64,000 bases of DNA from positions 157,232-221,231 of the forward strand of contig JBGAGV010000006.1 in assembly GCA_044226525.1 (NCBI GenBank), read 5' to 3'. The DNA comes from Chthoniobacteraceae bacterium. GTDB taxonomy: Bacteria; Verrucomicrobiota; Verrucomicrobiia; Chthoniobacterales; Chthoniobacteraceae. This document shows positions 5,135-33,692 of the stretch, in pieces (the first letter of the stretch is position 1; every line of letters begins with the position of its first letter). A program made the translations under genes and the position numbers. The notes beneath the pieces were generated by a model. The model did no database searches. It was not told where the DNA came from and saw only the letters and a program-made list of their open reading frames with translations.

Positions 5135-5268
5135 GGCGCGACACCTGATCACCGCACGATCCGGCGCGGCGCACCGCCGCCGATTTGCCTCGTCTCGGCG
5201 TTGAAACACAGGGTGCGTGCTTGAGAACAGGCTCACATCGTGGACAAAGAATCCTCCACCCGGTGATC

Positions 5269-5976
5269 ATGACTCTCGATCAAACCATGAAACTGCTCGA
5301 ATCGAAGGGACGCGAACAGACGCGGAAGACCTTTCGCAGGCATGGCGCGCCGGAAAACATGTTCGGCGTAAAGGTGGGAGATTTGAAGCCCATCGCGAAG
5401 CAGGTGAAGGGTGACCAAGCGCTGGCGATGCAGCTTTACGCCACGGGTAATTCCGATGCGATGTATCTCGCGGGACTAATCGCCGATGGGGCGAAGATGA
5501 AGCGGAGCGAGTTGGATCGGTGGGCGAAAGCTGCGACGTGGCACATGATCTCCGGTTGCACGGTGCCGTGGGTGGCGGCGGAACATCCCGACGCGATTGA
5601 AATCGCGATGAGATGGATGGATTCTCCGAAAGCGGAGATCGCCGTGGCGGGTTGGGCGACGCTGGCGGCGGTGATCAGCGTGCGCAAAGACGAGGAACTG
5701 CCGATCGACCAACTGGACGCACTCCTTGCTCGTGTCGTGAAAAACATTCACTCCTCCCCCAACCGCGTGCGCTACGTGATGAATAGCTATTTGATTTGTT
5801 GCGGCACCTATGTCGCTCCGCTCGCAGACAAGGCCATGGCTGCCGCCCGGAAGATCGGATCGGTGAAAGTGGACATGGGCGAAACCGATTGTCAGGTGCC
5901 GGAAGCCGCGCCTTACATCGTCAAGTGCCGCCGCGGCCAGCCGGTGGCGCCAAAACGGAAGACGGCGCGCTGTTAG
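5269..5976 (+). CDS. DNA alkylation repair protein (AlkD/AlkC-like HEAT-repeat glycosylase family)
   Basis: MTLDQTMKLLESKGREQTRKTFRRHGAPENMFGVKVGDLKPIAKQV...LYATGNSDAMYLAGLI... is characteristic of the DNA_alkylation family. The start was chosen at an internal ATG of ORF 5185..5976. Confidence 0.7.
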   Translation: MTLDQTMKLLESKGREQTRKTFRRHGAPENMFGVKVGDLKPIAKQVKGDQALAMQLYATGNSDAMYLAGLIADGAKMKRSELDRWAKAATWHMISGCTVPWVAAEHPDAIEIAMRWMDSPKAEIAVAGWATLAAVISVRKDEELPIDQLDALLARVVKNIHSSPNRVRYVMNSYLICCGTYVAPLADKAMAAARKIGSVKVDMGETDCQVPEAAPYIVKCRRGQPVAPKRKTARC

Positions 5977-6057
5977 TTTCGAAGCCGCGAATTACGTGTT
6001 GTAATCCCGAACGGGATGACAGGATGGGATAGCCTGTATAATTGCCCATCACGCCAC

Positions 6058-7158
6058 ATGACTCCAAAACTTTTCACGCCGTTTACGCTCAAGGACATCA
6101 CCTTCCGCAACCGCATCGCCGTCTCGCCGATGTGCCAATACCAGGCGATCGATGGATTGCCGACGGACTGGCATCCGACGCATTACATTTCGCGGGCGCG
6201 CGGTGGAGCGGGATTGGTCGTCGTGGAGGCTACGGCGGTGAGTCCCGAGGGGCGTATCACCCCGGCGTGCACCGGGCTCTGGAGCGACGCCCACGCGGAT
6301 GCATTCCGACCGATCGCCGAGGGCATCAAGGCCGGGGGCGCGGTCGCGGGAATCCAGATCGGACACGCCGGGCGCAAAGCCTCGGCGAACGTGCCGTGGG
6401 AAGGGGATAATCACATCCCGGCGGGCGATCCGCGCGCTTGGGAGCCGATCGCGCCCAGCGCGGTGGCTTACGGTGGAGAGCTTTCCCGCGTGCCGCGCGA
6501 GATGACCCTGGCGGATATTGCGCGGGTGCGGGAAGATTTTGTGGCTGCGGCGAAGCGCGCCCGTGACACCGGCTTCGAGTTTCTCATGCTGCACTTTGCG
6601 CACGGTTACCTCGCGCAAAATTTCCTCTCCCGCTGGTCGAACCGGCGCACCGACGAATACGGCGGCAGCGCCGGGAACCGCGCGCGGTTCATGGTCGAAA
6701 CACTCGAAGCCGTGCGCGCCGTCTGGCCCGCGCATCTTCCGCTCGCCGCGCGGCTCGGGGTGATCGAGTTTGATGATCGCGACGAGGAGACGCTCGCGGA
6801 ATCCATCGCCCTCGTGAAACGCTTCAAGCAACTCGGGCTCGATTTCCTCGACGTCAGCATGAGCTTCTCGACGCCCACGGCCAAAATTCCGTGGGGGCCG
6901 GGGCAGTTGCGCCAGATTTCCAAGCGCGTGCTGAGCGAAGCGGGTCTGCCCGGCTCGACGACGTGGAACATCAACACCTCCACACTCGCCGAGGAGATGC
7001 TACAGGAAGGGTCCGCCGATCTCGTGATGATTGGCCGTCCCATCCTCGCCAACCCGCACTGGCCGTTCGCCGCCGCGCGCGAACTTGGTGTCGCGAATGC
7101 GCCCGCACTTTTACCCGACTCCTACGCTCACTGGCTCTCGCGTTATCACTTCGCCTGA
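6058..7158 (+). CDS. NADH:flavin oxidoreductase / NADPH dehydrogenase (Old Yellow Enzyme family)
   Basis: MTPKLFTPFTLKDITFRNRIAVSPMCQY...HYISRARGGAGLVVVEATAV...HFAHGYLAQNFLSRWSNRRTDEYGGS...GRPILANPHWP. These are canonical OYE/NamA motifs. Confidence 0.85.
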   Translation: MTPKLFTPFTLKDITFRNRIAVSPMCQYQAIDGLPTDWHPTHYISRARGGAGLVVVEATAVSPEGRITPACTGLWSDAHADAFRPIAEGIKAGGAVAGIQIGHAGRKASANVPWEGDNHIPAGDPRAWEPIAPSAVAYGGELSRVPREMTLADIARVREDFVAAAKRARDTGFEFLMLHFAHGYLAQNFLSRWSNRRTDEYGGSAGNRARFMVETLEAVRAVWPAHLPLAARLGVIEFDDRDEETLAESIALVKRFKQLGLDFLDVSMSFSTPTAKIPWGPGQLRQISKRVLSEAGLPGSTTWNINTSTLAEEMLQEGSADLVMIGRPILANPHWPFAAARELGVANAPALLPDSYAHWLSRYHFA

Positions 7159-7844
7159 GCGGCGGAGGAGCGCCGGAAGCGCACGAAATAATTCTCCTTA
7201 AGCAGGTCGGTCACTTCGCCGATTTTTTCGAACCCGGCGGCGATGATTTCACTCTCGAAGACTTCCTGCCCGGCGCGCACGTGTCCCATCACGAAGTCAC
7301 TGCTCACGCCCGGAATGCGCTTGAAATCGATGAGCACGATTTCGCCGCCCGGCTTCAGCGCATGGTGCAGCGAGGCGAGGCTGGCCTGCGGAAACTCGAA
7401 GTGGTGATATACATCGCAGATGAAGGCCACGTCGATGCTCGCTTCGGGTAGCGCGACGCTGCGCCCGGTGCCAAGCACGGTCTGGATGTTTTTTGCGCCA
7501 GCCTGAGTGGCCCGTTGCTGGATGAGTTCGAGAAACTTTGGCGCGATCTCTACCGCATACACTTTCCCGGCGCCGCCCACCGCTTTGGCAAAGGGGAGTG
7601 TAAAGAGGCCAGTGCCCGCGCCGATATCGGCCACGGTCTGTCCCGGTTTCAGCCCGACGGCGGCGACGATTTTCTGGTGCTGGTGAAAGATTTCGCGGCT
7701 CTCGGTTTCGAATTTCCCGACCCACTCTTCCGCCTTCATCTGCGGATCGAGGAACTTGTCGTTGATGCCGGGTTTGACGCTCTGCTCCTGGGCGAAAGCG
7801 GTCGCGAGCGAGAGAGCGAGGAAGAGAAGAGGGGTGAAACGCAT
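7146..7844 (-). CDS. Class I SAM-dependent methyltransferase with N-terminal signal peptide
   Basis: MRFTPLLFLALSLATAFAQE (signal peptide). Motif I is VADIGAGTGLFTLPFA and there is a downstream acidic motif (VAFICDVYHHF). Confidence 0.75.
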   Translation of the reverse strand: MRFTPLLFLALSLATAFAQEQSVKPGINDKFLDPQMKAEEWVGKFETESREIFHQHQKIVAAVGLKPGQTVADIGAGTGLFTLPFAKAVGGAGKVYAVEIAPKFLELIQQRATQAGAKNIQTVLGTGRSVALPEASIDVAFICDVYHHFEFPQASLASLHHALKPGGEIVLIDFKRIPGVSSDFVMGHVRAGQEVFESEIIAAGFEKIGEVTDLLKENYFVRFRRSSAAQAK

Positions 7845-7918
7845 AAGCACGCAACTTCGGCGTGGCCCGATATGAAGTCAGCCGTGAATTGCCCCGCTTT
7901 TTCGGTGGCGAAGCCGCG

Positions 7919-8908
7919 CTACGCCGTGAGGTGGAAGTAGGCGTGGATGTGCGGCTCGCCGCGGAAATACCACACCATGTCCGGGCCTTCGATCTGCCAG
8001 GTGTCCCACACGTGATCATCGCCGATGTCGTATTTGCCGCCGTAGCAGGAGACGAAAAGCTGATCGACCAGCTTGCGGTCCTCGATCGATTTCATTGTCG
8101 CGTTCACATCGTCCGCGCGGAAGCAGCCGAGCATCTTCCGCATCGTGTCCAGCAGCTTGGCCTGCTGATCCTTGCTCAAGTCCGCGACGGCGAGGCCAGG
8201 GAGATCGGTTTTCCGTTTCTCGATCACCGTCGCCGGCTTCTCCGCGCGCGGTTGCTGGCCCACGAGCATTTTCTCCTGCTGCTTCCCGTCGAGCGTGCCG
8301 GCGAATTCATTGAAGAGCAGGCCCTGATACCAGAACGGGTTCCCCTCGTGATCCTTCGACTCGTGGAAGCCCTTTGCGAAGTTCCCGTAGAAGATCGGCT
8401 CGCCGTGGAAGCCGAGCCCCTTGTCCGTGTGCGCATGGCACCGCCGCGTGACGTGGTGGCCGGTGTAGATGAATTCGAAATCCTTGTCTTCCGGCGTGCC
8501 GAAGAACCCGACGGACGGCGTGTTTTTGATCTCGCCCATCAGATCCTTCTGCACCTGCCACGTCATCTTTTCGCGATGCTCCGGCGCGTGGAGCGACTCG
8601 AAGATCTGCTGCACGAGATCCTGCTGCTCCTTGGTGTAAAAGGTATGCAGCCGCTGCTCCGGGCAGATATACCACCAGTTGCTCACAAATTGCCGCTTCG
8701 GGTCGTTCACCGGCAGCACGATCTTGCTGTGCTGCTCCTCGGTCAGCGATTTGTAAAACTGCATCGGCAGCGAGTCCTTCTCCGCGGCGAGCGCGCGCAG
8801 CGAGGGAAACGCCGAAAAAAGCGCCGTGGCGCCGAGCGTGCGGATGACATCGCGCCGCGTCGTCGGTTGATTGAGTTTCGTGAGTCCGGGGGGAACTAGC
8901 GAGTTCAT
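7919..8908 (-). CDS. DUF3500-family protein with twin-arginine (Tat) signal
   Basis: The start sits at an internal ATG, MNSLVPPGLTKLNQPTTRRDVIRTLGATALFSAF, which is Tat-like (RRDVI). The mature part is His-rich (HAPEHREKM...HHVTRRCHAHTD...). The ORF-track start at 9112 lies in a low-complexity leader that is unlikely to be translated. Confidence 0.55.
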   Translation of the reverse strand: MNSLVPPGLTKLNQPTTRRDVIRTLGATALFSAFPSLRALAAEKDSLPMQFYKSLTEEQHSKIVLPVNDPKRQFVSNWWYICPEQRLHTFYTKEQQDLVQQIFESLHAPEHREKMTWQVQKDLMGEIKNTPSVGFFGTPEDKDFEFIYTGHHVTRRCHAHTDKGLGFHGEPIFYGNFAKGFHESKDHEGNPFWYQGLLFNEFAGTLDGKQQEKMLVGQQPRAEKPATVIEKRKTDLPGLAVADLSKDQQAKLLDTMRKMLGCFRADDVNATMKSIEDRKLVDQLFVSCYGGKYDIGDDHVWDTWQIEGPDMVWYFRGEPHIHAYFHLTA

Positions 8909-8988
8909 ACGGGAACGAGTCGGCGATGCGCGGCCAAAATCCAGCCGAGTTTTCCCCCGGCCGATTGGGAGTCGCGACCGGCGCGGCG

Positions 8989-9300
8989 TTACAAATGGAA
9001 GACCTCGCACAGCGGTTCCGTGATCGGGCTGTGGTCTGGATTCACAGTCATCAGCTCGCGCATGTGCGTCCACCAGCGGCGGCAGGCTTCGGTCTGCGCG
9101 ATCGCGTTCCATCGCTCTTCGCTCTCGATTTCCGCATAGGCGAAAAGCTGCCGCGTTTCCGGATGAAGAAAGATCGAATACGACCGCACGCCGTGCTCGG
9201 CCAGCACCGCCTGCAATTCCGGCCAGATCGGATTGTGGCGCCGCTCGTATTCCGCTTCGGTGCCGGGGTGGAGATGCATGAGGAACGATTTTCGGATCAT
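8989..9300 (-). CDS. rhaM: L-rhamnose mutarotase
   Basis: MIRKSFLMHLHPGTEAEYERRHNPIWPELQAVLAEHGVRSYSIFLHPETRQLFAYAEIESEERWNAIAQTEACRRWWTHMRELMTVNPDHSPITEPLCEVFHL matches the RhaM family end to end, at about 104 aa. Confidence 0.85.
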   Translation of the reverse strand: MIRKSFLMHLHPGTEAEYERRHNPIWPELQAVLAEHGVRSYSIFLHPETRQLFAYAEIESEERWNAIAQTEACRRWWTHMRELMTVNPDHSPITEPLCEVFHL

Positions 9301-9386
9301 GATTCGCAGGGATGAATCATCGCGTCTGCGCGGACAAGCCCGTAGCGGCCGCCCACCGGGCATTCGCCCCGGAGATTGTCTTTTCG

Positions 9387-10172
9387 ATGCGACCTCACTA
9401 CGCGTCGAACATGATCTGTCGCTTTCTCCTCAGTGCGCTCGTTATTTCGCTCCTGTCGCTCGGCGTTCGCGCCGAAGACGACACCGCGCATCACCGCGCT
9501 GTTTATGCCGCGACGAATGCGGCCCTGCCGCGCTTGAAAAAAGTCACGGCCACGTTCAAGGACGATCCCATCGAGTTTGCCCTCACCGGCTGGCTGCAGG
9601 ATGGAGAGGTGAAGAAGATCGTCGCCACGAACAGCACCGACGAGGGTGAGGAGGAATACTATCTCGAGAAGGAAGCGCCGCTCTTTGTTTACAACACGTA
9701 TCGCACCGGGGCAGGTCGCGGTGCGAAGATCGAGGAGCGCGTTTATTTTCGCGACGGGCGAATCATCAAATGGCTGACCAGCGAGAAACCCGCCCCGGTC
9801 TTCCACGGCGAAGATGATCGGGCCACCACGGAACGAATCGTGACGAATACGCGCAACTTCGTCGGCGCTCTCAAGAAAGGAAAATCATCCGCCAAAGCCG
9901 CGCCCGCCGCGAACACCATCGAAGGAACTTTCCTTGGCATTGAGGAAGGCGACTACGCTCATTGGCAGATGCGCAAGAAGAGCGGCGAGGAAGTTTCGCT
10001 CTTCATCCTTCGCCCCGACGCCTCGGTGGAAAAGGTAATCGCCAATCCCAAATCCTACCGCGGCCGCACCTGCCGCGTGACCTTCAAGAAAACGACCGAA
10101 AATATCCCCGAGGCGGGAGGCAGGATGGAGGTCGAGCAGATCGTGCGTGTGGAGTGGGTGGAGAGGAAGTAG
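9387..10172 (+). CDS. Hypothetical secreted protein
   Basis: Start at an internal ATG. The N-terminus is hydrophobic (MICRFLLSALVISLLSLGVRA) and followed by a hydrophilic body. No recognisable domain. Confidence 0.5.
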   Translation: MRPHYASNMICRFLLSALVISLLSLGVRAEDDTAHHRAVYAATNAALPRLKKVTATFKDDPIEFALTGWLQDGEVKKIVATNSTDEGEEEYYLEKEAPLFVYNTYRTGAGRGAKIEERVYFRDGRIIKWLTSEKPAPVFHGEDDRATTERIVTNTRNFVGALKKGKSSAKAAPAANTIEGTFLGIEEGDYAHWQMRKKSGEEVSLFILRPDASVEKVIANPKSYRGRTCRVTFKKTTENIPEAGGRMEVEQIVRVEWVERK

Positions 10173-10451
10173 GCCGTCGCGTCAAAGCCACTGCGAGGGG
10201 CGAAGCCTCCCTTGTTTACTCTACCTGCTCTCCTTCTGCCACCTGACCAACGCGAAGGAATGTTTGATGAGTGCGCCTTCGCCGCAGACCGTGATGAAAG
10301 GGAAGCGCTTGAACCACCGACCGACGGGAACCTCGGGATTTGTGTCAGCCAGCGAGCCAATAGGACGAGTTGATCGCCTCCGATTTCCCGCTGTTTGATG
10401 CGTTCGCGAAGATGCTGAAGGAGCGCAAACGGCAGGCGTTCGCGCAGAACC

Positions 10452-10673
10452 TTAGGCATCGATCTTCATGCCATAGAAGTCGGTCATGAGCGCCTTCTCC
10501 AAGGTGGCGATCTCCTCCGGGTCGGTGGCTTGGGCGAGACGTTCGCCCAGTTCACCGAGTTGTTCGGGCGTCAGTTTGGGCGCGGTCTCGTATTCCCTCA
10601 CGAAGCGGAGCACGTCTAGCCGTTCCTCGGGCGGGAGCTGTTTGATGGCTTCGATCACCTGTATCGCGCTCAT
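10452..10673 (-). CDS. Small protein resembling a putative addiction-module component (antitoxin-like); no partner gene nearby
   Basis: MSAIQVIEAIKQLPPEERLDVLRFVREYETAP... follows the 'LPPEER...' pattern of small addiction-module component families. It is 73 aa and no toxin ORF is adjacent. Confidence 0.4.
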   Translation of the reverse strand: MSAIQVIEAIKQLPPEERLDVLRFVREYETAPKLTPEQLGELGERLAQATDPEEIATLEKALMTDFYGMKIDA

Positions 10674-10727
10674 AGGGCAGCGTAGAATTGCGGAGGGTGG
10701 TGTCAATTGTCGCCCCGTGAACCACCG

Positions 10728-10771
10728 GAAAAAACAAACATGCCTCCCACCTTGCGGCGGGAGGCATGTGC
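10728..10771 (-). terminator. Rho-independent terminator downstream of katG
   Basis: A GC-rich inverted repeat catgcctccc(acc ttgc ggc)gggaggcatg lies at about 10741-10770. On the minus strand it is immediately followed by a U-rich run (rc of aaaaaacaaa at 10731-10740). It sits 30-60 nt 3' of the katG stop at 10804. Confidence 0.5.
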
Positions 10772-10803
10772 GGGAGCGATGAATCGCGGGAAGGACGCGA
10801 CGC

Positions 10804-15465
<4,662 letters not shown>

Positions 15466-15526: not shown

Positions 15527-16231
15527 TCAGTCCACCGTCCTGGCGCGAATCAAATCGATAATCTTGGCGGGATCGAAGTGCCCGGGATTCAACTCCACTT
15601 TATGAACGCCCGTTGGGATTCCGGCGGCGGAAGTGCCCGAGGGCATCAAAGCGAGGACGGCTTTGCCTGCCGACGTCGCGACGTCGAGGTCCGCGCTCAC
15701 CAAGGGGCTGATTTCATCGTCGCCGACCAGCCCGACCACCGCGTCGGATTGCGCGATCATGCGGCGCAACGATTCCTTCCAGGATTCACCGGTGGCAATG
15801 CTCGTCTGGTCGAGGATCTCGTAGCCGGAATTCTTGAAGCTCTCGCGCAGCTTGGCGGCGGTGCGGGAGTCTTCGGTGCTGTAGGAGAGAAACACCGTCG
15901 GCGGCCGGCCGGAAGGCGAGGCCTGTGATGCTGCGGCCGGCTGTTCGCGGTCTGGATATTCCAGTTTGAGGTAGTGACGGAGCGAATGCTTCGTGCCGTC
16001 GAGAAGCACGACTTCGGCTCGGAGCATGAACGTTCCCCAGCCCGCCGTGGTGAGCCGGAAGGCATTGGCGCGATCCTCCACCGTGACGCGGGACTGGCTG
16101 AAGCTGGGGTGGAGGATCCAGACGACATGCTTCACTTCCTTCATTTCGGCCTCCGTCCCTTCCAGCCATGCCGACCAGCGCCAGTAGTCGTTGCCGACGT
16201 ATTCGTAGTCCTGTGCAATTCGGTAGCTCAC
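15527..16231 (-). CDS. Two-domain protein: N-terminal beta-rich (prokaryotic YEATS-like?) domain + C-terminal TIR domain
   Basis: GTG start at 16231 overlaps the TGA stop of the upstream gene (GTGA). The C-terminus is TIR-like: PTVFLSYSTEDSRTAAKLRESFKNSGYEILDQTSIATGESWKESLRRMIAQSDAVVGLVG... The N-terminus is VSYRIAQDYEYVGNDYWRWSAWLEG...KHVVWILHPSFSQSRVTVEDR..., a beta-rich module like those fused to TIR in conflict systems. Confidence 0.65.
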   Translation of the reverse strand: MSYRIAQDYEYVGNDYWRWSAWLEGTEAEMKEVKHVVWILHPSFSQSRVTVEDRANAFRLTTAGWGTFMLRAEVVLLDGTKHSLRHYLKLEYPDREQPAAASQASPSGRPPTVFLSYSTEDSRTAAKLRESFKNSGYEILDQTSIATGESWKESLRRMIAQSDAVVGLVGDDEISPLVSADLDVATSAGKAVLALMPSGTSAAGIPTGVHKVELNPGHFDPAKIIDLIRARTVD

Positions 16232-16938
16232 GCGTGTTCCTCCAGGCGCACGCCGCCCACGAAGGGGTCGATGGCGTGGCGCGATTGCCACATTTTTCCT
16301 CCCTGCCGCAGGCGAAGGCGAACACGTTCACCTTCTTTCAGCTTTGGGAGAATCGCGTAAGCGGCACCAGGTTCCAACCCGAGGCTGGCGCGTTCGAAGT
16401 CCCGGAATTGACCAGTCTGCGAGATGACCTGAAATTCGCACCTGTCCCCCTGCGTTTCGTCATAGCGCGCCGCCAGGTCGTCCGGTTCGATGCGAACTCG
16501 CGCGGCTTTGCCGTAGTCCCGTTTCCACAGGGCGATGGTGTTCATGAGTTTGAGGATGACATCGATTTCGCGGCCGGGCTGGTAGGGCGTGTATTCGTTG
16601 CCTGCGCCGAGGCCACGCGCCCGGAGCAGTTCGTGCAGGACGCGCATGGTCGGTTTTCTCAGGCCTTCGGCATACTGAAACTCGCTCAGGACGAAGGCGG
16701 GATCCGCGATGTCGCCGGCGTCGTTGGCTTGCGGGGTCACCAAGGCGATCAAACCGTCCGCATCCTCGATTCGCTTTTTCAGCGCGTCATCGAGCGGGCG
16801 ACCGCCGACATCGACGCCGTCGAGCACGCGCAAGCCCATCGCTTCGATTGTTCGAACGACGAATTTGCGTAACCGTTCGAGTTCGTTCTCGTGGTCTGGG
16901 TGAGGGCGGTAGGTGTAGGAAAGGAACAGCTTCTCCAT
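16228..16938 (-). CDS. TIR-like domain protein with uncharacterised C-terminal domain
   Basis: MEKLFLSYTYRPHPDHENELERLRKFVVRTIEAMGLRVLDGVDVGGRPLDDALKKRIEDADGLIALVTPQ... fits the TIR 'FxSY...G...D...I..S...ivvls' pattern. The C-terminal ~110 aa (…CEFQVISQTGQFRDF…RVRLRLRQGG…) is unassigned. It sits 10 nt downstream of the protease stop. Confidence 0.6.
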   Translation of the reverse strand: MEKLFLSYTYRPHPDHENELERLRKFVVRTIEAMGLRVLDGVDVGGRPLDDALKKRIEDADGLIALVTPQANDAGDIADPAFVLSEFQYAEGLRKPTMRVLHELLRARGLGAGNEYTPYQPGREIDVILKLMNTIALWKRDYGKAARVRIEPDDLAARYDETQGDRCEFQVISQTGQFRDFERASLGLEPGAAYAILPKLKEGERVRLRLRQGGKMWQSRHAIDPFVGGVRLEEHA

Positions 16939-16948
16939 CGCGTTGCGG

Positions 16949-18556
16949 CTAAGTCTTTTTTTCCTTGATGATGGCTTGGATCCACAAGCCTTCATTTGCT
17001 CCGTAGGTGCCGGCCTCGCCGTTCAAACGGGAGATTCCTTCCTTGCCGCCGAGATGGTGCAGGCCGACGACGCTCCATTCTTCATTGAAGACCGGGCTGC
17101 CGGAACTGCCGCCCTCGGTGGGGGCTCGATAGTGCAGCCGGACGACTCCCTCGATGGCCGGCCGGCCTTTGGTCGGTCCCTCATGATCGAGTAATTCGTT
17201 GTCTTGCAGCGAAAACGCCAGTTCCCGGCCTCCGGGATGGCCGATGACATAAACGCGCTGCGCCGGCTGTCCACCTGCCAGCGGAAGAGTCTTCCCGGCG
17301 GAGAGCGCCCCAACCCCTTGGGGCTGCTTCTTGAGCTTGAGGATGCTCGCGTCGTGGCGGTCGGGAGGAGAACTCCACAACACCTTTTCCACCTCGATGC
17401 GCTGAACCGGCGACAACGCCTCGAACACCACCTCGGCCGAGTCGGCCTTGATCGCCTCGCCCGATCCTTCCGCATTGACGACGTGGTGGTTCGTCAGCAC
17501 GACTAGCTCATCCAGGTCGAGGCCGAGATCGTGAGCCCGCATGAGAAAGCCCGTGCCCTGCCGACGAATCCCGCGCAATTCGATGGCCACCACGGAACGA
17601 GCCTTTTCCAGCCCAAGCAGCATCCACCGATACGTTTTCGGTCCGTCCGCCCCGAGAATCGCCTCGAGTTGGCCGCGGGCTGGTGTTGGCGTGGCGGCGA
17701 GTTTTTTGAAGTCCGTTGGGGTCAGTTCGAGGGTGCCACCTGGCTTCCGCATCAGTTGCGCCTGCAGAATAGCCAGCAAGGGGCGTCCGTGCTTCTTGTC
17801 TTCGTCCAGCCCCCACACTTCGCAAAACTGCCGCAGGGTGCTGCCCAGGTGGAAGGCTTCCACCTTCGGATGGGTGACATACGTCCTCAAATGGCGCGCG
17901 ACATTTTTCCAGTCTCCGAGGGCCAGACATGCCTCGGCCATGGTGGCGGCGTGCCACTCGTCTTGCTGGGAGGAGGGAACTTTTTCGAGCGCTTCCAACA
18001 CCCGTCGGGCCAGGTCCACCGGATCGAGTTCCGGTGCGGCCGGGATCCCCAGACGTCGTGCCGCAGCGAGAACGGCCACCACGTTGATTCCCTGCCATGT
18101 CCACGATCCTCCCGCATCGACCACGGCCCGATAGGCGGAAACGGCTTGCTGGAGCGCGGTGCGCGCCGCCGGCGAATGTTTGTCTCGTGCGTCGAAAAAG
18201 ATTTGTTTGTGTGCGCGCCCGAGCAGCCCGGTCGCTTCTCCCCAAGCTGGAAATGATTTCGGCAGCCATCCCGTCAAGGTGCGCAAGAGATCGATCGCCG
18301 CCGTCGCTTTACCAGTTTCGATCAAGGCCTGCGCATACCAGCACCGCACGACCGCATCCTCGGGCGCGTGCCGGCCCGCGGCCTCGGCGAGGCGCCCCAG
18401 CATGGCGAACTCCCGCATCCCTCGCAATTTTTTGGCAGTGGAGCCGGCGGCATAGAGGTCTTCATGGCTGGGGGTGCCACGCAAACGATCCAGGCATTCT
18501 TCCGCGGCGCGCAACAGGGCGGCGCGCGGATCCTCGGGATTCGCTGGCTGGCTCAT
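16949..18556 (-). CDS. Helical-repeat (TPR-like) N-terminal domain fused to C-terminal trypsin-like (S1) serine peptidase
   Basis: The C-terminus has ...VVLTNHHVV (His)...GGSSGSPVF (catalytic Ser, GxSGSP)...VVGLHHLGG. The N-terminal ~330 aa are alpha-helical and Ala/Leu-rich. The start ATG at 18556..18554 overlaps the stop of the upstream hydrolase (ATGA). Confidence 0.7.
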   Translation of the reverse strand: MSQPANPEDPRAALLRAAEECLDRLRGTPSHEDLYAAGSTAKKLRGMREFAMLGRLAEAAGRHAPEDAVVRCWYAQALIETGKATAAIDLLRTLTGWLPKSFPAWGEATGLLGRAHKQIFFDARDKHSPAARTALQQAVSAYRAVVDAGGSWTWQGINVVAVLAAARRLGIPAAPELDPVDLARRVLEALEKVPSSQQDEWHAATMAEACLALGDWKNVARHLRTYVTHPKVEAFHLGSTLRQFCEVWGLDEDKKHGRPLLAILQAQLMRKPGGTLELTPTDFKKLAATPTPARGQLEAILGADGPKTYRWMLLGLEKARSVVAIELRGIRRQGTGFLMRAHDLGLDLDELVVLTNHHVVNAEGSGEAIKADSAEVVFEALSPVQRIEVEKVLWSSPPDRHDASILKLKKQPQGVGALSAGKTLPLAGGQPAQRVYVIGHPGGRELAFSLQDNELLDHEGPTKGRPAIEGVVRLHYRAPTEGGSSGSPVFNEEWSVVGLHHLGGKEGISRLNGEAGTYGANEGLWIQAIIKEKKT

Positions 18557-19488
18557 ACCCCGAGCAAGCGGCGCAACTCCCGGCGCAGCACTGGCTGCCG
18601 GTAATATTTGGTGGCCGAATGAGGCCAGGCTCCCCCGTTGGCCACCTGGATGTCATGAACGGTTTCGGCCGCCTGCCGTTTATAGTCGTTGCGAAGATGG
18701 GGGTCGAAGCCGCACACCGGGTCGAGCGGATCGAAAACATTCACCCACTCGCCGGCCACTTTGCCGCTGGGAAAACCATCCGCGCGGGACCATTCCGGGC
18801 GCAGCTTGTCCTGCACTTCGTCGAGCCCGAGGGGACTGCCGAGCGTGATGAGCCCATCGACTTCCGGGCACCCGGCCACGCGCTTGAGGCAATCGTAGGC
18901 GATGACCGTTCCCATGGAGTGGCTCACCACGATATGCGGACGGCTGTCGACCCGCCCGAGAAGATTCACCGTGCGGCGTCGAATCTCGTCCTGAACGCGA
19001 AATGTCTCTCCGGGCCGCGGCGTCGATTCGACGTTGAACAAGTAGTGATGCACGTCGCGCAGGAAGGCGGCCATCATCGGCTTTTTCAAAAACCAGGGCA
19101 GTGGAATCCGTTCCAGCGGCTTGGTGCCCGTGGGTTCCGGTGCCTGAGTCGCGGTCGCGATTTCTTCATCCGAAAAATCGGTGAGATGGTGACGCAGAGC
19201 CTCGATGAATTCGGCCGACTCGGGTGAAACCGGCGTGGGCAACGCAGGATCGCCGCTCCCGTCGAGTGTGGCGGGCGTATTTTCGAGCACGCCTTCGTGC
19301 GCCGCGACGTCCAGATCGGGTGCCGGGTAAAGCACATCTGCCCAATAGACCAGACTGGAAGAAACTCCCAGAGCGCCCAACGCGAGCGGATCGTCTCCTG
19401 TGTCGGCCAGGGAGCGGCGCCAGATGTTCAGCAGCTCGTCCGCCGCCGGTTTGTTGGAGATGCCATGAATGAAAGTGACGTGCGCCAT
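18553..19488 (-). CDS. Alpha/beta-hydrolase (lipase/esterase-like, PGAP1/LCAT-like) protein
   Basis: MAHVTFIHGISNKPAADELLNIWRRSLA...VYWADVLY...IVVSHSMGTVIAYDCL (GxSxG nucleophile elbow HSMGT)...ITLGSPLGL. There is no signal peptide. It is the first gene of the minus-strand operon. Confidence 0.65.
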   Translation of the reverse strand: MAHVTFIHGISNKPAADELLNIWRRSLADTGDDPLALGALGVSSSLVYWADVLYPAPDLDVAAHEGVLENTPATLDGSGDPALPTPVSPESAEFIEALRHHLTDFSDEEIATATQAPEPTGTKPLERIPLPWFLKKPMMAAFLRDVHHYLFNVESTPRPGETFRVQDEIRRRTVNLLGRVDSRPHIVVSHSMGTVIAYDCLKRVAGCPEVDGLITLGSPLGLDEVQDKLRPEWSRADGFPSGKVAGEWVNVFDPLDPVCGFDPHLRNDYKRQAAETVHDIQVANGGAWPHSATKYYRQPVLRRELRRLLGV

Positions 19489-19697
19489 GGGATTCAGGAG
19501 GTGTGGGAGGGAGGGCTCGACGGTCGAGGGGGAGCAGGTTGCCCGAGACGGTTGGACTTTGGCAATTTAGAATCGCGTTGGGATCGGGAGGCATTCCTTC
19601 GAGAAAGATCAACGCGCGACGCGTCCGAGTTTTCTAAGACACTCGAATTGTCGGCTTCTCGCAGTCTCCCCTTGAAGGAAGGGGGCGGCGCACTTTA

Positions 19698-27905: not shown

Positions 27906-28307
27906 ATGAAACTACATACCGGAAGGACTCTCTTGGCGGGCGCATTTCAAGCACATAGGTTGGCGTCGGCTGGTGGAGACATCCCAGGTGGTTCAGGTGC
28001 ACTTCTGCTCTGCTATTCTGTAGAGTGCGGGCTGAAACTCGTTCTGCTTATTCAGCGAAACCTGCACAGCACGGAGCGGCTTTCGGATGATGATCTAACG
28101 CACGATTTGGATGAACTCAGCACAAAGGTTGGGTGCCGACATCGCATTGGAATAACGGATGTAGCCCAGCCCGCGAGCCTGCGCCTCGAATCTCGGCGAT
28201 TACATGAACTTTTTCGATATGGAGGGAAGCTAAGTAACAATAATTTACAAGCGTTGCGAAGTAGGCTGCAGGAAATTGTATTTTGGATCGAGGAGCAACT
28301 CGAATGA
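27906..28307 (+). CDS. Hypothetical 133-aa protein, translationally coupled to the downstream dual-NTPase gene
   Basis: MKLHTGRTLLAGAFQAHRLASAGGDIPGGSGALLLCYSVECGLKLVLLIQRN... The stop TGA (28305-28307) overlaps the ATG at 28304 of the next gene (ATGA). It lies in the AT-richer island. Confidence 0.5.
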   Translation: MKLHTGRTLLAGAFQAHRLASAGGDIPGGSGALLLCYSVECGLKLVLLIQRNLHSTERLSDDDLTHDLDELSTKVGCRHRIGITDVAQPASLRLESRRLHELFRYGGKLSNNNLQALRSRLQEIVFWIEEQLE

Positions 28308-30907
28308 AGGAGTTGTTTACATGGCGAGACGTTCAGGATCAGGTTGACGGCTCTAACGAAAAGCCGTGGATTCGGGCGAGTGCCGACACCACCACCCTCC
28401 GAATCGAATGCCTCCCTGGACAAGCGGCGGAGTGTAGCCGCGTTTTGACAGATATTATTCCTTCGTTCGAGGCGGAGACGAATTCAGTCCGCCTCGCTGG
28501 ATTGCCCTCGAATCAGCGGAAACTCATTGTGGAGATTATCGAGGATGCTGATGTTGCCCCGGTGGTCACGATTGAGAGACCGCTATGGACCAATCGGACC
28601 GCTGAGTTGAAGCCGCCAGCAGCCCCGCTGAAATCAAAAGTCTGTGCTTTCTATTCATACAAAGGAGGCGTGGGGCGAACGACCGCTGTCGTTGCGATGC
28701 TGGCGGAAATTTTGCATCAACATCCTACCAGCCGCGTCTTGGTGATCGATGCGGATTTTGAGGCTCCTGGTCTAACCTGGCTTCTTAAGCCACCCACTGA
28801 GGATGGCTTTTCTTATATCGACGCACTTTCGTTGCTTCATGATGCCGACGATTGGAAACGCGATGCGCTACCTCTCATTGCCGATTGCGTCCGACTGGGT
28901 AGCGCAACTCTCGAGATACCGGATGGGCGTCGCGATTTTTGGTTTCTTCCGGCGGTTCGATCGGTGGACCAACTTTTTAAAATGCCGATTCGTCCAGAAC
29001 AAGTGGTGCGTGCACGAGGACGAGCATGGTTGATGGCTGACTTTTTATTCGAACTTTCGCAAACGCTGAAATTTGATGTAGTGTTGGTGGACATGCGGAC
29101 GGGGATAACAGAGTTTTCATCACCGCTTTTGCTGGACCCTCGTGTTGAAAAGATTTTGGTGACCTCCTGCAATGCTCAATCGGTGCGGGGGACAGTAGAG
29201 ACTTTACGGCGGGTGCAAAAGGCTCATCCGTCTAGTGAAAAGCCGGAGGTCATTGTTAGCCTTGTGCCTCCCGATTCGGGAGAGTTGTTTGAAAAAATTA
29301 GCACTGACATAATTGACGTATTCAATGATCAGCCGCCAACGGGAGGGGATTCGGTCGGCTCGCAGCTTGGAATTCACCGGTCTGATTTTGCGCAGGAGCT
29401 TCTGCATTTCGAAAGCTTGGACGACTTTGCGTTAAAACGGCTTTCCGGAACTCAGCTTGGAAAAAAGGTTGCCCCCGATTTAGTTGAGCGCCTTGTCGAT
29501 ATTTCTGATTCAGTGCCTGCGCGTGAAGACGCCGGAGTTTCGGCCGCGATAACGCCAAAGGATGTCGCAGAGGCAGCGAAAAAATTGGAGTTTGCCGAAC
29601 AAAATTCTGAAGTGGGGTTGTTACCGATCCCCGCTTTGCGAAAGCTTTTAGAGGTGCCGACCGGGAGACTTCCGATAGCTAACGTGATTGGTGCAAAGGG
29701 GGCGGGTAAAACATTTGCCTGGGGACAGTTGGTTCTTGCGAAACGTCTCTTGAAGTTTTCTCAACTCGTCTCGACGACTCATGAAGTGCGGGACGCGCAA
29801 ATATTTCCACTTTTAGCTCCCACTTCATTAAGCCCGCATTTGGCGGATCAAGTGAGGGCACTTGAGGAGCAGGTGGTAGGGAGTCGTGAATCGAGGCTGA
29901 CGCGTTTTGCGCTCAAGGATCAAGTGGAGCGGTCTGATACCTCATGTGAGCCATTTGATTTTTGGTTGTGTGCTATAGCCGATCGTTTGGGTTTGCCCGT
30001 TCCAGCGGGGAACAATGCTCGTGAAAAGCTTCGATCAGTCTTTTCTCAGGTTGAGCCCATTCTTCTGATTGTGGACGGTCTAGAAGATGCACTTCAGGTA
30101 ACCGTTGGGACGGGATTAACTGAACCGCAAAAGAAAATCCTCCGCTACCTGTTGCAGGATTTTCCTAGCATCCTTCGGGAATCCGGAGTTGATAATATTG
30201 GCTTGGTCGTTTTTGTGAGACGAGACTTGGCTGCATTGGCTATCAGGCAAAACTTTGGGCAGTTCGAGGCTCTTCACCGCGACACGACGTTGACATGGAC
30301 GCCGGCAGACGCATTGCGCTTACCGCTCTGGTTGCTGGCGAGACTTGGGTGGGACACAAAACTTCCGAGTGTCGCGACTGCGTCATACGATGAATTGCGT
30401 AAAGCCTTGTTTGCATTTTGGGGCGAGAAGATGGGGGGGAAGCGCGAGGCTTTTACGGACGAATGGGTAATCGCGACCCTTTCAGACTTTAATCTCGTTT
30501 TGCAGGCGAGAGATATGACGAGGTTAGTGCGCTACGCTGCGGAGAATCACGGGATTCGATCATTTCCAATTCCGCATACAGCCCTGAGGAACGCAGTGCC
30601 ATCTGTGTCGCAAGAGAAAATTGCCGAACTGGGAAAAGAAGTTGCCGCGTTGGAATCAATATTTTCGCGTCTCCAAGGGCATGCCATTAATTTGAAAGTG
30701 ATTCCTTTTTCTCCAACGGATGTAGGTCTATCGGCAGAGGAGGTCGTATTTATGCAGCAGCTAGGGTTGCTCGCCCCTTCCGACGAACCGGATAAGTTGT
30801 TCATGCCGGAAATTATTCGGCATGGCTTGGGCTTTAAACTAGCCAACAGGGGCCGTGCTCGCGTTCTTGCGCTTTATCGAGAGGCGCGGCAGCGGCGACA
30901 ATCATAA
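28304..30907 (+). CDS. 874-aa two-NTPase protein: ParA/MinD-type (SIMIBI) P-loop domain with Arg-substituted Walker A + C-terminal NACHT/STAND-like NTPase
   Basis: The N-terminal half has VCAFYSYKGGVGRTTAVVAMLAEIL...RVLVIDADFEAPGL...FDVVLVDMRTGITEF, a ParA/MinD deviant Walker A with GRT in place of GKT. The C-terminal half has LPIANVIGAKGAGKTFAWGQLVL (Walker A) ... EPILLIVDGLEDAL (Walker B of hhhhDGhDE type, as in NACHT/STAND). The first ~100 aa are unassigned. It lies in a visibly lower-GC region. Confidence 0.7.
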   Translation: MKELFTWRDVQDQVDGSNEKPWIRASADTTTLRIECLPGQAAECSRVLTDIIPSFEAETNSVRLAGLPSNQRKLIVEIIEDADVAPVVTIERPLWTNRTAELKPPAAPLKSKVCAFYSYKGGVGRTTAVVAMLAEILHQHPTSRVLVIDADFEAPGLTWLLKPPTEDGFSYIDALSLLHDADDWKRDALPLIADCVRLGSATLEIPDGRRDFWFLPAVRSVDQLFKMPIRPEQVVRARGRAWLMADFLFELSQTLKFDVVLVDMRTGITEFSSPLLLDPRVEKILVTSCNAQSVRGTVETLRRVQKAHPSSEKPEVIVSLVPPDSGELFEKISTDIIDVFNDQPPTGGDSVGSQLGIHRSDFAQELLHFESLDDFALKRLSGTQLGKKVAPDLVERLVDISDSVPAREDAGVSAAITPKDVAEAAKKLEFAEQNSEVGLLPIPALRKLLEVPTGRLPIANVIGAKGAGKTFAWGQLVLAKRLLKFSQLVSTTHEVRDAQIFPLLAPTSLSPHLADQVRALEEQVVGSRESRLTRFALKDQVERSDTSCEPFDFWLCAIADRLGLPVPAGNNAREKLRSVFSQVEPILLIVDGLEDALQVTVGTGLTEPQKKILRYLLQDFPSILRESGVDNIGLVVFVRRDLAALAIRQNFGQFEALHRDTTLTWTPADALRLPLWLLARLGWDTKLPSVATASYDELRKALFAFWGEKMGGKREAFTDEWVIATLSDFNLVLQARDMTRLVRYAAENHGIRSFPIPHTALRNAVPSVSQEKIAELGKEVAALESIFSRLQGHAINLKVIPFSPTDVGLSAEEVVFMQQLGLLAPSDEPDKLFMPEIIRHGLGFKLANRGRARVLALYREARQRRQS

Positions 30908-33026: not shown

Positions 33027-33692
33027 GATGGATGTGTTCTCTTTCTATATGTCGGCTTTGCGAACACTGCGGTCCGGGCTCGGGTGGGCTGGAGCGGCGT
33101 GGCGGCCTTGGGCCGTTCACGTTTGGTGCTGCCGCAGGACGGCAGGGCTCCCGGCATCCGGGCACGGGTGTGCGCGAAGCTGGCTATTTTCGAGAGGATG
33201 GAGCGCCGCTTTGGCGCCCGGTGAGTTTGCTCACCGAGGGTTGCCGCGGCTCCCTGCCTCTGGGTGTTGAGCGGACGGAGTTAGCTGTCGGGCTTGGGCC
33301 ACTCAGTGCCCCCGGCGCCGCAGTGCGCCGTTCGCCCCAGTGGCCGCTCTTCTAGGAAAGAAGGGCGGCGGAATTTGGGTCCCCCGTTGATCGGGCCACT
33401 TGGCTCGATCATTACGCTGGCAAAGAACCGCTATTAGTATGACACAAGCGATGGCGGGGTCAACTCGGCCCGGCCTTCGGGTGGGCGTTCTGAGAGGCTA
33501 AGGTGCTGCCCAGTCGAACTTTACAGCAAAACCCCGAAAAGGATGGCATGCCGTCGAAATCGCCACAAAAAGGCGTTTGGGCAGGAGATTCATTGTTGAC
33601 CCCGAGCTGGGAAACAGGTCTCCTCGCCCGACTAAATTGCAGTGGAGGCGCTTCATCGTGCTCATGAAGCGCTGCACAGCCCATTAACTTCC

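Follow-up and report, generated by a model that had tools for sequence, protein, structure and literature searches.

A four-gene operon of a Chthoniobacteraceae bacterium coupling two TIR-domain proteins to a TPR-S protease and an α/β-hydrolase: a candidate Thoeris-type system

In a 64,000-nt stretch of DNA from a Chthoniobacteraceae bacterium, here called the window, an earlier note described four tightly linked genes, g1–g4, as a candidate Thoeris-like immune operon. This raises the question of whether a hydrolase, a protease and two TIR-domain proteins act together in defence, and how far such a combination is new. The operon consists of two separable modules, g1–g2 and g3–g4, joined together, and it is read here, with a probability of about 0.6, as a Thoeris-type, TIR-signalling abortive-infection (anti-phage) system.

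Organization of the operon and its surroundings

The minus-strand genes g1–g4 are a real four-gene operon, and a separate gene prediction for the contig agrees on all four. Their features, in window coordinates, are as follows.

19489–19697, minus strand: intergenic region from g1 to the divergent S8 protease gene, presumed operon promoter region
18553–19488, minus strand: g1, ORF of 311 aa
16949–18556, minus strand: g2, ORF of 535 aa, ATGA overlap with g1
18071–18394, minus strand: TPR-S core of g2, aa 55–162 (PF20308)
17060–17557, minus strand: trypsin-like protease domain of g2, aa 334–499 (PF13365)
16228–16938, minus strand: g3, ORF of 236 aa
16510–16938, minus strand: TIR domain of g3, aa 1–143 (hhalign and Foldseek)
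16231–16509, minus strand: unassigned β-rich C-terminal domain of g3, aa 144–236 (no match among PDB sequences)
15527–16231, minus strand: g4, ORF of 234 aa, GTG start, GTGA overlap with g3
15965–16183, minus strand: pYEATS domain of g4, aa 17–89 (Pfam pYEATS)
15641–15895, minus strand: TIR domain of g4, aa 113–197 (Pfam TIR_2)
15689–15691, minus strand: GAC codon of g4, Asp181, at the TIR catalytic Glu position (DNA read and alignment)

The junctions, read directly in the DNA, are those described earlier: an ATGA at 18553–18556 is common to g1 and g2, the TAG stop codon of g2 is followed by 10 nt and then by the g3 ATG at 16938, and a GTGA at 16228–16231 is common to g3 and g4. No terminator was found between g2 and g3. 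The genes are conserved and not chance ORFs, since g1, g2, and g3 have 1971, 1465, and 148 homologous clusters, respectively. The length of g3 was set at 236 aa, although a longer ORF extends to 16995, because nearly all homologues have 236 aa. The motifs quoted in the earlier note (HSMGT, TNHHV, GGSSGSPVF, FLSYTY, and VFLSYS) are all present and occupy invariant or near-invariant alignment columns. None of the four translations opens with an apparent signal peptide: in g1 the first β-strand, and in g3 the βA strand of the TIR domain, comes right at the start.

The placement of the operon was also described correctly. A 61-bp gap separates it from the convergent parC gene for topoisomerase IV subunit A (13300–15465; Pfam DNA_topoisoIV, 1.9e-107), and on the other side the divergent S8 protease gene, coding for 1744 aa, starts at 19698. 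The stretch between g1 and the S8 gene is 209 bp long and was included in the end coordinate given earlier, 19697, the start of g1 being 19488. No sigma-70-like consensus is found in 19489–19697 and no Shine–Dalgarno-like sequence is visible in the bases 5' of the g1 ATG. The neighbours of the operon within the window are housekeeping genes, without a defence island, and the sole other defence-like match in the window lies ca. 8.8 kb away. A housekeeping locus conserved in synteny with parC, a possibility raised in the earlier note, is not what is found, because the relatives have quite different surroundings and are in part plasmid-borne.

The hydrolase–protease pair

The description of g2 as a helical, putatively sensory N-terminus fused to a chymotrypsin-fold protease agrees with its Pfam matches, TPR-S (PF20308, 45.7 bits against a cut-off of 27.6, E 1e-11) and Trypsin_2 (PF13365, 83.5 bits, 3.2e-23). 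The helical region spans ca. aa 15–320, and there is also a weak match to MAP3K_TRAF_bd. In the alignment of g2 homologues the catalytic triad H358/D402/S485 is invariant, and so are the polar or charged residues of its helical region E58, R62, R71, R114, K117, Q118, D122, D125, R167, and R242. The same architecture is present in the best 120 of the 1465 clusters; with more than 1,400 homologous clusters, the family is therefore abundant in soil and plant-associated bacteria. In PADLOC, g2 is matched through its protease part only, by the defence-associated proteases RT-Protease_XI and LmuA.

g1, an α/β-hydrolase as the earlier note had it, is predicted to be cytoplasmic and belongs to an un-named, lipase/phospholipase-like family. 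Its AF2 model has a pLDDT of 84.7, and its matches are to the generic α/β-hydrolase fold only. An alignment of 49 homologues shows H8-G9, S191 (in SHSMG), D253/D256, and H290 to be invariant; a helical insertion occupies ca. aa 50–150 and contains a variable linker at ca. aa 104–124. In 11 scan loci, in L030, and on three plasmids, the g1 gene immediately precedes a g2 homologue, and on plasmids the coupling is kept even at 37–45% g2 identity. In a g1-less sister clade a patatin phospholipase is encoded directly beside g2, and g1 can be argued to be a lipid-hydrolase effector because this non-homologous enzyme replaces it. A GH108 muramidase is conserved with g1–g2 in 13 of 19 loci and is absent from this operon, so the version in the window may be incomplete.

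The TIR pair

Pfam TIR_2 matches g3 weakly (E 0.037). Its N-terminal part aligns with the TIR domain of the pYEATS–TIR family of g4 (hhalign 98.3%, E 2e-14), with E86 at the catalytic Glu, and the Foldseek matches of g3 are mostly SARM1 and plant TIRs and include RPS4, RUN1, and AbTir. The AF2 model of g3 has a pLDDT of 87.6. In the aligned g3 homologues F5, S7, and Y8 do not vary, and at least 90% keep E86. The C-terminal domain has no match among PDB sequences.

A YEATS-like N-terminus followed by a TIR domain was proposed for g4 and is borne out by Pfam (pYEATS 65.3 bits, 4.8e-18; YEATS 1.8e-10; TIR_2 51.5 bits against a cut-off of 28, 1.8e-13), and human YEATS2 structures are matched by g4 in phmmer (E 1e-5). 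Across 131 representatives of the family, the pocket motifs LHP[ST]F and GWGxF do not vary. Non-TIR Rossmann folds, considered earlier as a source of misassignment, do not account for the pair: g3 is a TIR that retains the catalytic Glu, and g4 passes TIR_2. At the position of this Glu in g3, in the TIRs of the other loci, and in ThsB of types IV and VIII, g4 has Asp181; within the pYEATS–TIR family the column holds Glu in 112 and Asp in 9 of the 131 representatives. Hence, of the two TIR signal generators envisaged earlier, g3 with its E86 may be active and g4 impaired.

Distribution of the two modules

That the four genes make one indivisible unit, as the earlier note implied, does not hold, as g1–g2 and g3–g4 each occur alone many times. 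The modules are hosted by α-, β-, and γ-proteobacteria, Vicinamibacteria, and conjugative plasmids, in differing genomic contexts, and the neighbours of the relatives include SIR2, restriction–modification, and toxin–antitoxin genes; none of the relatives was found on viral contigs. Close to the Sinorhizobium locus are genes for a DUF6531 protein and an autotransporter.

The g1–g2 pair is found in proteobacteria, Acidobacteria, and rhizobial plasmids, often near unrelated TIR genes and the GH108 muramidase gene. In 11 of 20 distinct loci a g2 homologue has unrelated TIR genes at most 8 kb away, of several types (TIR-only, TIR-FGE-sulfatase, TIR-WD40, and TIR-SCP2), and a 1422-aa TIR protein is encoded next to a further plasmid g2 homologue. 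In nine of the 20 loci no TIR gene is detectable within 8 kb of g1–g2, nor is one detectable in two of the three plasmid loci. The pair stands alone on an A. fabrum plasmid, on an R. etli plasmid, and in L006.

g3 and g4 are always paired. They are often on their own, with housekeeping genes around them in Bradyrhizobium and elsewhere, and no TPR-S protein is encoded within the available flanks of L024, L025-28, L029, L031, L042, L044, L046, L052, L053, and L062. The co-localisation in other genomes that the earlier note asked about is nevertheless found: g3–g4 adjoins g2 in L037 and L038, where the order found here (g2–g3–g4) is kept, and a g1 homologue in L055 in an independent order, g3–g4–g1 (51% identity). 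The pair also recurs beside different TPR-S proteins, in L049 and L060 (77–85 bits) and, next to a homologue of that type, in L059, while in L057 it is adjoined by a patatin gene. Co-localisation of TIR and effector genes is thus recurrent across genomes but facultative, and since either module is often found by itself, the two pairs could be autonomous. This clean modularity, with signal and effector pairs alone, swapped, and re-joined in varied orders, offers material on the assembly of signalling immune systems.

Comparison with known systems

No named system model in PADLOC-DB 2.0 matches the operon; PADLOC 2.0 gives no hits for g1 and g3 and only weak generic TIR matches for g4. TIR-domain proteins, by which Thoeris systems are generically recognized, are encoded by g4 (TIR_2 51.5 bits) and by g3 (hhalign and Foldseek).

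A validated system of a TIR protein and a TPR effector is type VIII Thoeris, composed of the TIR protein ThsB and of ThsI, with canonical cADPR as the signal (Yirmiya et al., bioRxiv 10.64898/2025.12.03.692087). ThsI joins a CMP hydrolase to a TPR proposed to perceive cADPR (bioRxiv 10.64898/2025.12.03.692087). With this precedent, the principle of the operon is already known, and in both cases a TIR gene lies beside that of a TPR-bearing effector. Pfam TPR-S is found in g2 and also in a ThsI-like protein of an E. coli plasmid (PF20308, 64.5 bits), whose gene adjoins that of a homologue (56% identity) of the Yersinia ThsB that has been tested; the link is at the profile level only, the two TPR-S regions having no significant BLAST similarity. 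The enzyme of g2 is a C-terminal trypsin-like protease, whereas that of ThsI is an N-terminal CMP hydrolase. Moreover, the operon has an extra conserved α/β-hydrolase partner, and two TIR proteins with additional domains instead of one minimal ThsB, and its TIRs are of the TIR_2 type, below the ThsB_TIR threshold. Membership of type VIII is ruled out by the enzyme domain of g2, which is Trypsin_2 without a CMP hydrolase.

Type IV Thoeris comprises a TIR protein and the caspase-like protease ThsE, which cleaves cellular proteins indiscriminately, with N7-cADPR as the signal. Its likeness to the operon lies in a protease effector, activated in type IV by a TIR-made messenger, but g2 has a chymotrypsin/trypsin fold instead of a caspase one, a TPR-S sensor region, and an additional lipase-like gene at its side. 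The operon does not belong to type IV, as g2 is Trypsin_2/Trypsin with a His–Asp–Ser triad and not caspase-like. With type III Thoeris (several TIR proteins and a SLOG effector) it shares more than one TIR-domain protein per operon, but it encodes no SLOG effector, and the NCBIfam match of g4 to ThcB4 is far under the cut-off (25 against 220 bits).

Signalling by NAD+-derived molecules through TIR, TPR-S, and pYEATS proteins was reportedly predicted by Burroughs and Aravind (J Bacteriol 2020), whose work is said to be the source of PF20308 and PF20305 and in whose logic a TPR scaffold reportedly senses the NAD+-derived signals. All three, TIR, TPR-S (PF20308), and pYEATS (PF20305), are present above their Pfam thresholds in this one operon. 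Both the TPR-S and the pYEATS families were defined for TIR/NAD-derived signalling (Burroughs & Aravind 2020, as cited in bioRxiv 10.64898/2025.12.03.692087). In the literature searched no experimental test of a version with trypsin and α/β-hydrolase, or of a g3-type partner with TIR and β-domain, was found. Of the novelty claimed in the earlier note, the effector part stands, in that the pair of a trypsin-like protease and an α/β-hydrolase appears to be unnamed, but the TIR/TPR-S principle does not count as new.

Protease-activated pro-enzyme pairs, HamM and its relatives, occur in Hachiman, AVAST, Lamassu, and DRT systems (bioRxiv 10.1101/2025.07.28.667249). [quoted passage not shown] It is not itself a HamM-type pair, g1 being an α/β-hydrolase (lipase-like) and not a metallo-β-lactamase (MBL) nuclease; the g2 protease is, in addition, C-terminal to its partner domain. 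In plants, TIR-derived nucleotides act through the lipase-like proteins EDS1, PAD4, and SAG101. TIR is linked there too with a lipase-like α/β-hydrolase domain, by analogy only; the g1 triad is intact, and the predicted receptor is the TPR-S of g2 and not the lipase-like protein.

Proposed mechanism and alternatives

In the Thoeris-type reading, the translationally coupled g3 and g4 would be the signal module, probably a hetero-oligomeric TIR assembly with an active site provided by g3 (E86) at least. Infection would be sensed by the non-TIR domains, namely the aromatic pocket of the g4 pYEATS domain and the β-domain of g3, and the activated assembly would convert NAD+ into an ADP-ribose-derived second messenger. 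Binding of the messenger to the TPR-S of g2 would release the C-terminal trypsin-like protease, which might cleave g1 into an active (phospho)lipase damaging the membrane, or cleave cellular proteins, or both, the infected cell being killed or arrested. Cleavage of g1 by g2 is suggested purely by analogy.

The abortive-infection reading draws on the catalysts being intact in g2 (H358/D402/S485), g1 (S191, D253/D256, and H290), and g3 (E86). Signalling from TIR to TPR-S is favoured because TPR-S is common to g2 and the ThsI-like protein of the type VIII kind, and because TIR and TPR-S genes are juxtaposed independently in diverse loci; the protease step is supported by the RT-Protease and LmuA matches of g2 and by the precedent of type IV. 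The conserved coupling of g1–g2 and the mobile, patchy distribution of the modules argue for the Thoeris-type reading as well. Against it count the modules being often apart, the Asp of g4, the housekeeping flanks, the non-significant TPR-S BLAST comparison, the lack of relatives on viral contigs, the lack of a matching named system in PADLOC 2.0, and the absence of GH108. An extended version, doubtful though conceivable, is a three-tier cascade undescribed in bacteria: a pYEATS–TIR/TIR–β-domain sensor, in which the pYEATS pocket detects infection, would act through an NAD-derived messenger and TPR-S on the protease, and this on a zymogen, the DDHD-like phospholipase g1 (with the GH108 muramidase in relatives), so that the envelope is dismantled in a holin–endolysin-like manner along a TIR-to-lipase axis reminiscent of plant TIR–EDS1. 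If confirmed, the Thoeris-type reading would extend Thoeris by one more type, with a serine protease gated by TPR-S and its own lipase-like partner as the effector arm, and would provide a tractable system for the TPR-S ligand, for the cue sensed by the prokaryotic YEATS pocket, and for proteolytic pro-enzyme activation, extended from nucleases to lipases.

It is rather unlikely that two independent systems merely lie side by side here, g3–g4 being self-contained, with its pYEATS and β-domain sensors and NAD+ depletion by TIR, and the TPR-S of a separate g1–g2 sensing a cue that these TIRs do not make. The loci listed above in which g3–g4 lacks a TPR-S neighbour or g1–g2 stands alone would fit such independence, and standalone TIRs are known NAD+-depleting effectors; however, g2 and g3 lie on the same strand with a 10-nt gap and no terminator, and the joined orders of L037, L038, and L055, the other TPR-S proteins beside g3–g4, the diverse TIR genes near g2 homologues (11 of 20 loci), and the type VIII precedent for TIR-to-TPR signalling all tie the modules together.

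Still less probable is a regulatory g1, for instance an esterase that sets the activation threshold by degrading or modifying the signal, or else a protein that inhibits or chaperones the protease, with the protease alone killing by indiscriminate proteolysis. The indiscriminate cleavage by the type IV protease and the generic fold matches of g1 are compatible with it, whereas the patatin that stands in for g1 in the sister clade suggests that selection acts on lipid hydrolysis, and no α/β-hydrolase is known to cleave ADP-ribose-type messengers. A role other than anti-phage, in envelope remodelling or in inter-bacterial or host-directed action (for example with TIR and YEATS directed at the eukaryotes in which rhizobia live, and protease, lipase, and muramidase attacking cell envelopes), is very improbable. 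It is suggested by the many homologues in rhizobia and on symbiosis-type plasmids, the conserved GH108 muramidase, the DUF6531 and autotransporter genes of the Sinorhizobium locus, and YEATS being otherwise a eukaryotic chromatin reader; it is opposed by the four translations having no apparent signal peptide, by the wide occurrence of the families in several phyla of free-living bacteria from soil and freshwater metagenomes, and by TPR-S, TIR, and trypsin modules being hallmarks of intracellular conflict systems.

Two modules of the operon

The operon is not indivisible: it consists of two modules, g1–g2 and g3–g4, each often found without the other. Its four genes code for an α/β-hydrolase, a protein joining a TPR-S domain to a trypsin-like protease, a TIR protein with a β-domain, and a pYEATS-TIR protein, and the ORF call places them as follows:

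g1, 18553-19488, minus strand, 311 aa, α/β-hydrolase
g2, 16949-18556, minus strand, 535 aa, TPR-S and trypsin-like protease
g3, 16228-16938, minus strand, 236 aa, TIR and β-domain
g4, 15527-16231, minus strand, 234 aa, GTG start, pYEATS-TIR

Read in the DNA, ATGA is common to g1 and g2, the TAG stop of g2 is followed after 10 nt by the ATG of g3, and GTGA is common to g3 and g4. A separate gene call for this contig yields the same four products. The ORFs and junctions are as the earlier note claimed, and its domain calls proved remarkably accurate. Neither a convincing internal terminator nor a sigma-70 promoter was detected, and no difference in G+C content from the surroundings was seen. The topoisomerase IV subunit A gene (Pfam DNA_topoisoIV) lies convergently 61 bp off the operon, with katG (Pfam peroxidase) farther out on the same side, while the other flank is formed by a divergent gene for a 1744-aa S8 protease.

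The g1–g2 module

The α/β-hydrolase matches of g1 in Pfam are all sub-threshold, and PADLOC and NCBIfam gave none. Its homologues form 1971 clusters, mostly 308-315 aa in length, and in an alignment of 49 of them H8-G9, S191 (within SHSMG), D253/D256, and H290 are invariant. Residues ca. 50-150 form a helical insertion, with a variable, lower-confidence linker immediately N-terminal of an invariant LERxPLPW motif. In g2, Pfam detects TPR-S (PF20308, 45.7 bits against a cut-off of 27.6) and Trypsin_2 (83.5 bits); H358, D402, and S485 are invariant in the homologues, as are many charged residues of the TPR-S region. The protease part is also matched by the PADLOC models RT-Protease_XI and LmuA.

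A scan of species-representative genomes together with contig look-ups, in which genes of high-G+C loci were defined by all-frame clustering and Pfam checks, found a g1 homologue directly 5' of a g2 homologue at 11 loci spanning α-, β-, and γ-proteobacteria and Vicinamibacteria. L030, a locus described below, has the same arrangement, as do three plasmids from cultured rhizobia and Agrobacterium, where g2 identity is only 37-45%. Thus g1–g2 is a conserved pair and its coupling is strict. At the alphaproteobacterial MAG locus L020 (6529-9582) both the g1 and the g2 homologue are broken across two reading frames, and are either pseudogenes or assembly errors. In viral contigs there were no relatives of g3, and g2 had matches at the level of the protease domain only.

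A muramidase gene (GH108 with PG_binding_3) lies directly 5' of g1–g2, or of g2, at 13 of 19 loci, the Sinorhizobium plasmid pK101b among them, and is absent from the window; its product could be a second effector with a cell-wall target. A sister clade of g2 (43-47% identity) is devoid of g1 and has a patatin phospholipase gene directly adjoining g2, in a set coding for a ca. 700-aa protein with a second TPR-S domain, a ca. 280-aa unknown protein, GH108, the protease, and the patatin. The positions in the homologous loci (L-numbers) are:

GH108 + PG_binding_3 muramidase gene: L006, 6405-7019; L007, 6134-6934; L015, 7279-7902; L033, 5251-5871; and others
g1-less sister-clade neighbourhood: L015, L016, L017, L019, and L021, around 4000-11000

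The g3–g4 module

As Pfam gave only TIR_2 at E 0.037 for g3, further tests were applied. Its AF2 model (pLDDT 87.6) has a flavodoxin-like N-terminal domain and a C-terminal β-domain, most of its Foldseek matches are catalytic TIRs, and comparison of its profile with that of the TIR in the pYEATS-TIR family gave 98.3% (E 2e-14). E86, which is near-invariant, falls at the TIR catalytic glutamate in the alignments. For the C-terminal domain, a profile search of PDB sequences returned no match and hhalign against the pYEATS family gave the TIR-TIR match alone, the fold-search match lists for g3 being dominated by the N-terminal domain. The assignment of g4 is direct, with 65.3 bits for pYEATS and 51.5 bits for TIR_2 in Pfam; human YEATS2 structures match its YEATS domain (E 1e-5), and the LHP[ST]F and GWGxF pocket motifs are invariant among 131 representatives of the family. 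The position of the TIR catalytic glutamate is occupied in g4 by Asp181 (GAC, 15689-15691). In the family this column holds Glu in 112 of the 131 representatives, as in the g4 homologues of L024, L025, L029, and L031, and Asp in nine, so that Asp is a recurrent minority state.

g3–g4 is a conserved pair too: at every locus with sufficient downstream sequence a pYEATS-TIR gene lies directly 3' of the g3 homologue, usually overlapping it. The pair occurs alone in Bradyrhizobium (for example GCA_000878305.1), between oxidoreductase and transporter genes (the protein is present on 79 contigs), and also at several metagenomic loci. In L031 (9482-14406) a convergent TIR-DctP fusion, an S8 peptidase, and an Amidase_2 gene come after the pair, and genes for a phage sheath and for PIN and HigB toxins lie in the vicinity; the S8 neighbours of L031 and of the window may be a coincidence.

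Association of the modules and the proposed mechanism

The g2-g3-g4 order of the window recurs in two other metagenomes (L037 and L038, g3 identity 82-85%), and in L055 a g1 homologue comes after a more distant g3–g4 pair (51%), an order unlike that of the window. More distant g3–g4 pairs adjoin other TPR-S proteins in L049 and L060 (TPR-S 77-85 bits), a homologue of such a protein in L059, and a patatin in L057. A TIR gene lies within 8 kb of the g2 homologue at 11 of 20 distinct loci, and the TIR proteins found there have unrelated architectures (TIR-only, TIR-FGE-sulfatase, TIR-WD40, TIR-SCP2); on a Sinorhizobium plasmid a 1422-aa TIR protein adjoins a further g2 homologue. That TIRs and TPR-S proteins, both of them variable, come to lie side by side repeatedly and independently is the signature of a signal generator and its receptor, and is evidence that the two modules work together.

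Two further kinds of loci were observed. In the metagenomic loci L036 (366-623) and L068 (797-1441), of 83-84% g3 identity, g2 is shrunk to a short ORF, its first ca. 58 or 79 residues being joined to its last ca. 14; TPR-S and the protease seem to have been lost by in-frame deletion, independently in the two loci, with g1, g3, and g4 retained. L030 (1097-7008), a 70%-identical relative, has four other same-strand genes 5' of g1–g2, coding for a 456-aa protein with a weak TIR_2 match, a weakly MBL-like protein, a TIR-SCP2 protein, and a separate 440-aa TPR-S protein, and is a dense TIR/TPR-S island.

We propose, with a probability of roughly 0.6 for the scheme as a whole, that in the TIR assembly of g3–g4 the pYEATS and β-domains would sense infection, that the assembly would produce an NAD-derived messenger, and that binding of the latter by the TPR-S domain of g2 would release the protease, which would then activate g1 as a phospholipase, degrade cell proteins, or both, so aborting the infection. 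Activation of g1 by the g2 protease, taken alone, is a tentative and rather doubtful step, suggested by analogy with the protease-activated pro-enzyme pairs, by the strict g1–g2 coupling, and by the replacement of g1 by a patatin in the sister clade.

The occurrence of each module on its own would also suit two autonomous systems lying side by side, an unlikely arrangement when set beside the recurrent TIR/TPR-S neighbourhoods. g1 might be a regulator and not an effector, but a phospholipase stands in its place elsewhere, and we regard this role as distinctly improbable. Still less probable is a non-defence role of the locus, envelope or host-directed, even with muramidase genes and rhizobial plasmids among the settings of its homologues.

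Relation to known systems

According to the preprint by Yirmiya et al. (bioRxiv 10.64898/2025.12.03.692087), type VIII Thoeris has been validated as a TIR protein with ThsI, the signal being canonical cADPR; ThsI is described there as 'CMP hydrolase and TPR', and its TPR is proposed to perceive the signal, a role for which the authors credit an earlier prediction by Burroughs and Aravind (2020). On that account the TIR-to-TPR-S principle is known, having been predicted in 2020 and validated in 2025. A ThsB homologue 56% identical to the tested Yersinia ThsB, encoded on an IncP plasmid of E. coli, adjoins a 402-aa 'TRAFs-binding domain' protein, which is TPR-S in Pfam (64.5 bits). As pairwise comparison of this protein with g2 gave no significant similarity, the relationship of g2 to ThsI-like TPR-S proteins is at the family level only. 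In L072 (conjugative E. coli IncP plasmid pKMi029_2, NZ_CP147111.1 1-6614) the type VIII-like pair of TPR-S and ThsB-type TIR has a second TIR gene directly beside it and then a convergent DUF4231 gene.

A protease gated by a TIR signal is found in type IV Thoeris, and in Hachiman and AVAST a protease activates a pro-enzyme encoded immediately 5' (bioRxiv 10.1101/2025.07.28.667249); g1/g2 has the same layout as these pairs, but its enzyme is lipase-like, whereas theirs is a nuclease. PADLOC has no model that covers the operon as a system, and no description of a trypsin-TPR-S and α/β-hydrolase pair was found in the searchable literature, which does not include Burroughs and Aravind (2020). No effector category of the trypsin, protease-TPR, or α/β-hydrolase kind appears in the available parts of the supplementary tables of Yirmiya et al., and their 29 putative types could include the present configuration. 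The operon had been put forward in the earlier note as a candidate novel four-gene Thoeris-like system; its Thoeris-like character stands, while the single four-gene unit gives way to two separable modules that follow a known principle, with one TIR lacking the canonical Glu. Judged by its sequence, it is a candidate for a further Thoeris type whose effector arm would be a protease and a lipase, and it is of a kind abundant in soil bacteria.

Other features of the window

An 874-aa ORF (28283-30907, plus strand) lies in a low-G+C stretch (0.51-0.52 vs. ca. 0.62 for the window) and has matches to PDC-M28B, a candidate defence model of PADLOC (E 2e-18), and, weakly, to AAA_31. Ca. 8.8 kb off the operon, it may represent a second defence gene, gained by horizontal transfer. 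The window contains no rRNA. A c-di-AMP (ydaO-type) riboswitch (33255-33415, minus strand; Rfam 46.4 bits) is located 5' of an ORF (30975-33026, minus strand) that codes for a 683-aa protein with a Band_7/SPFH domain.
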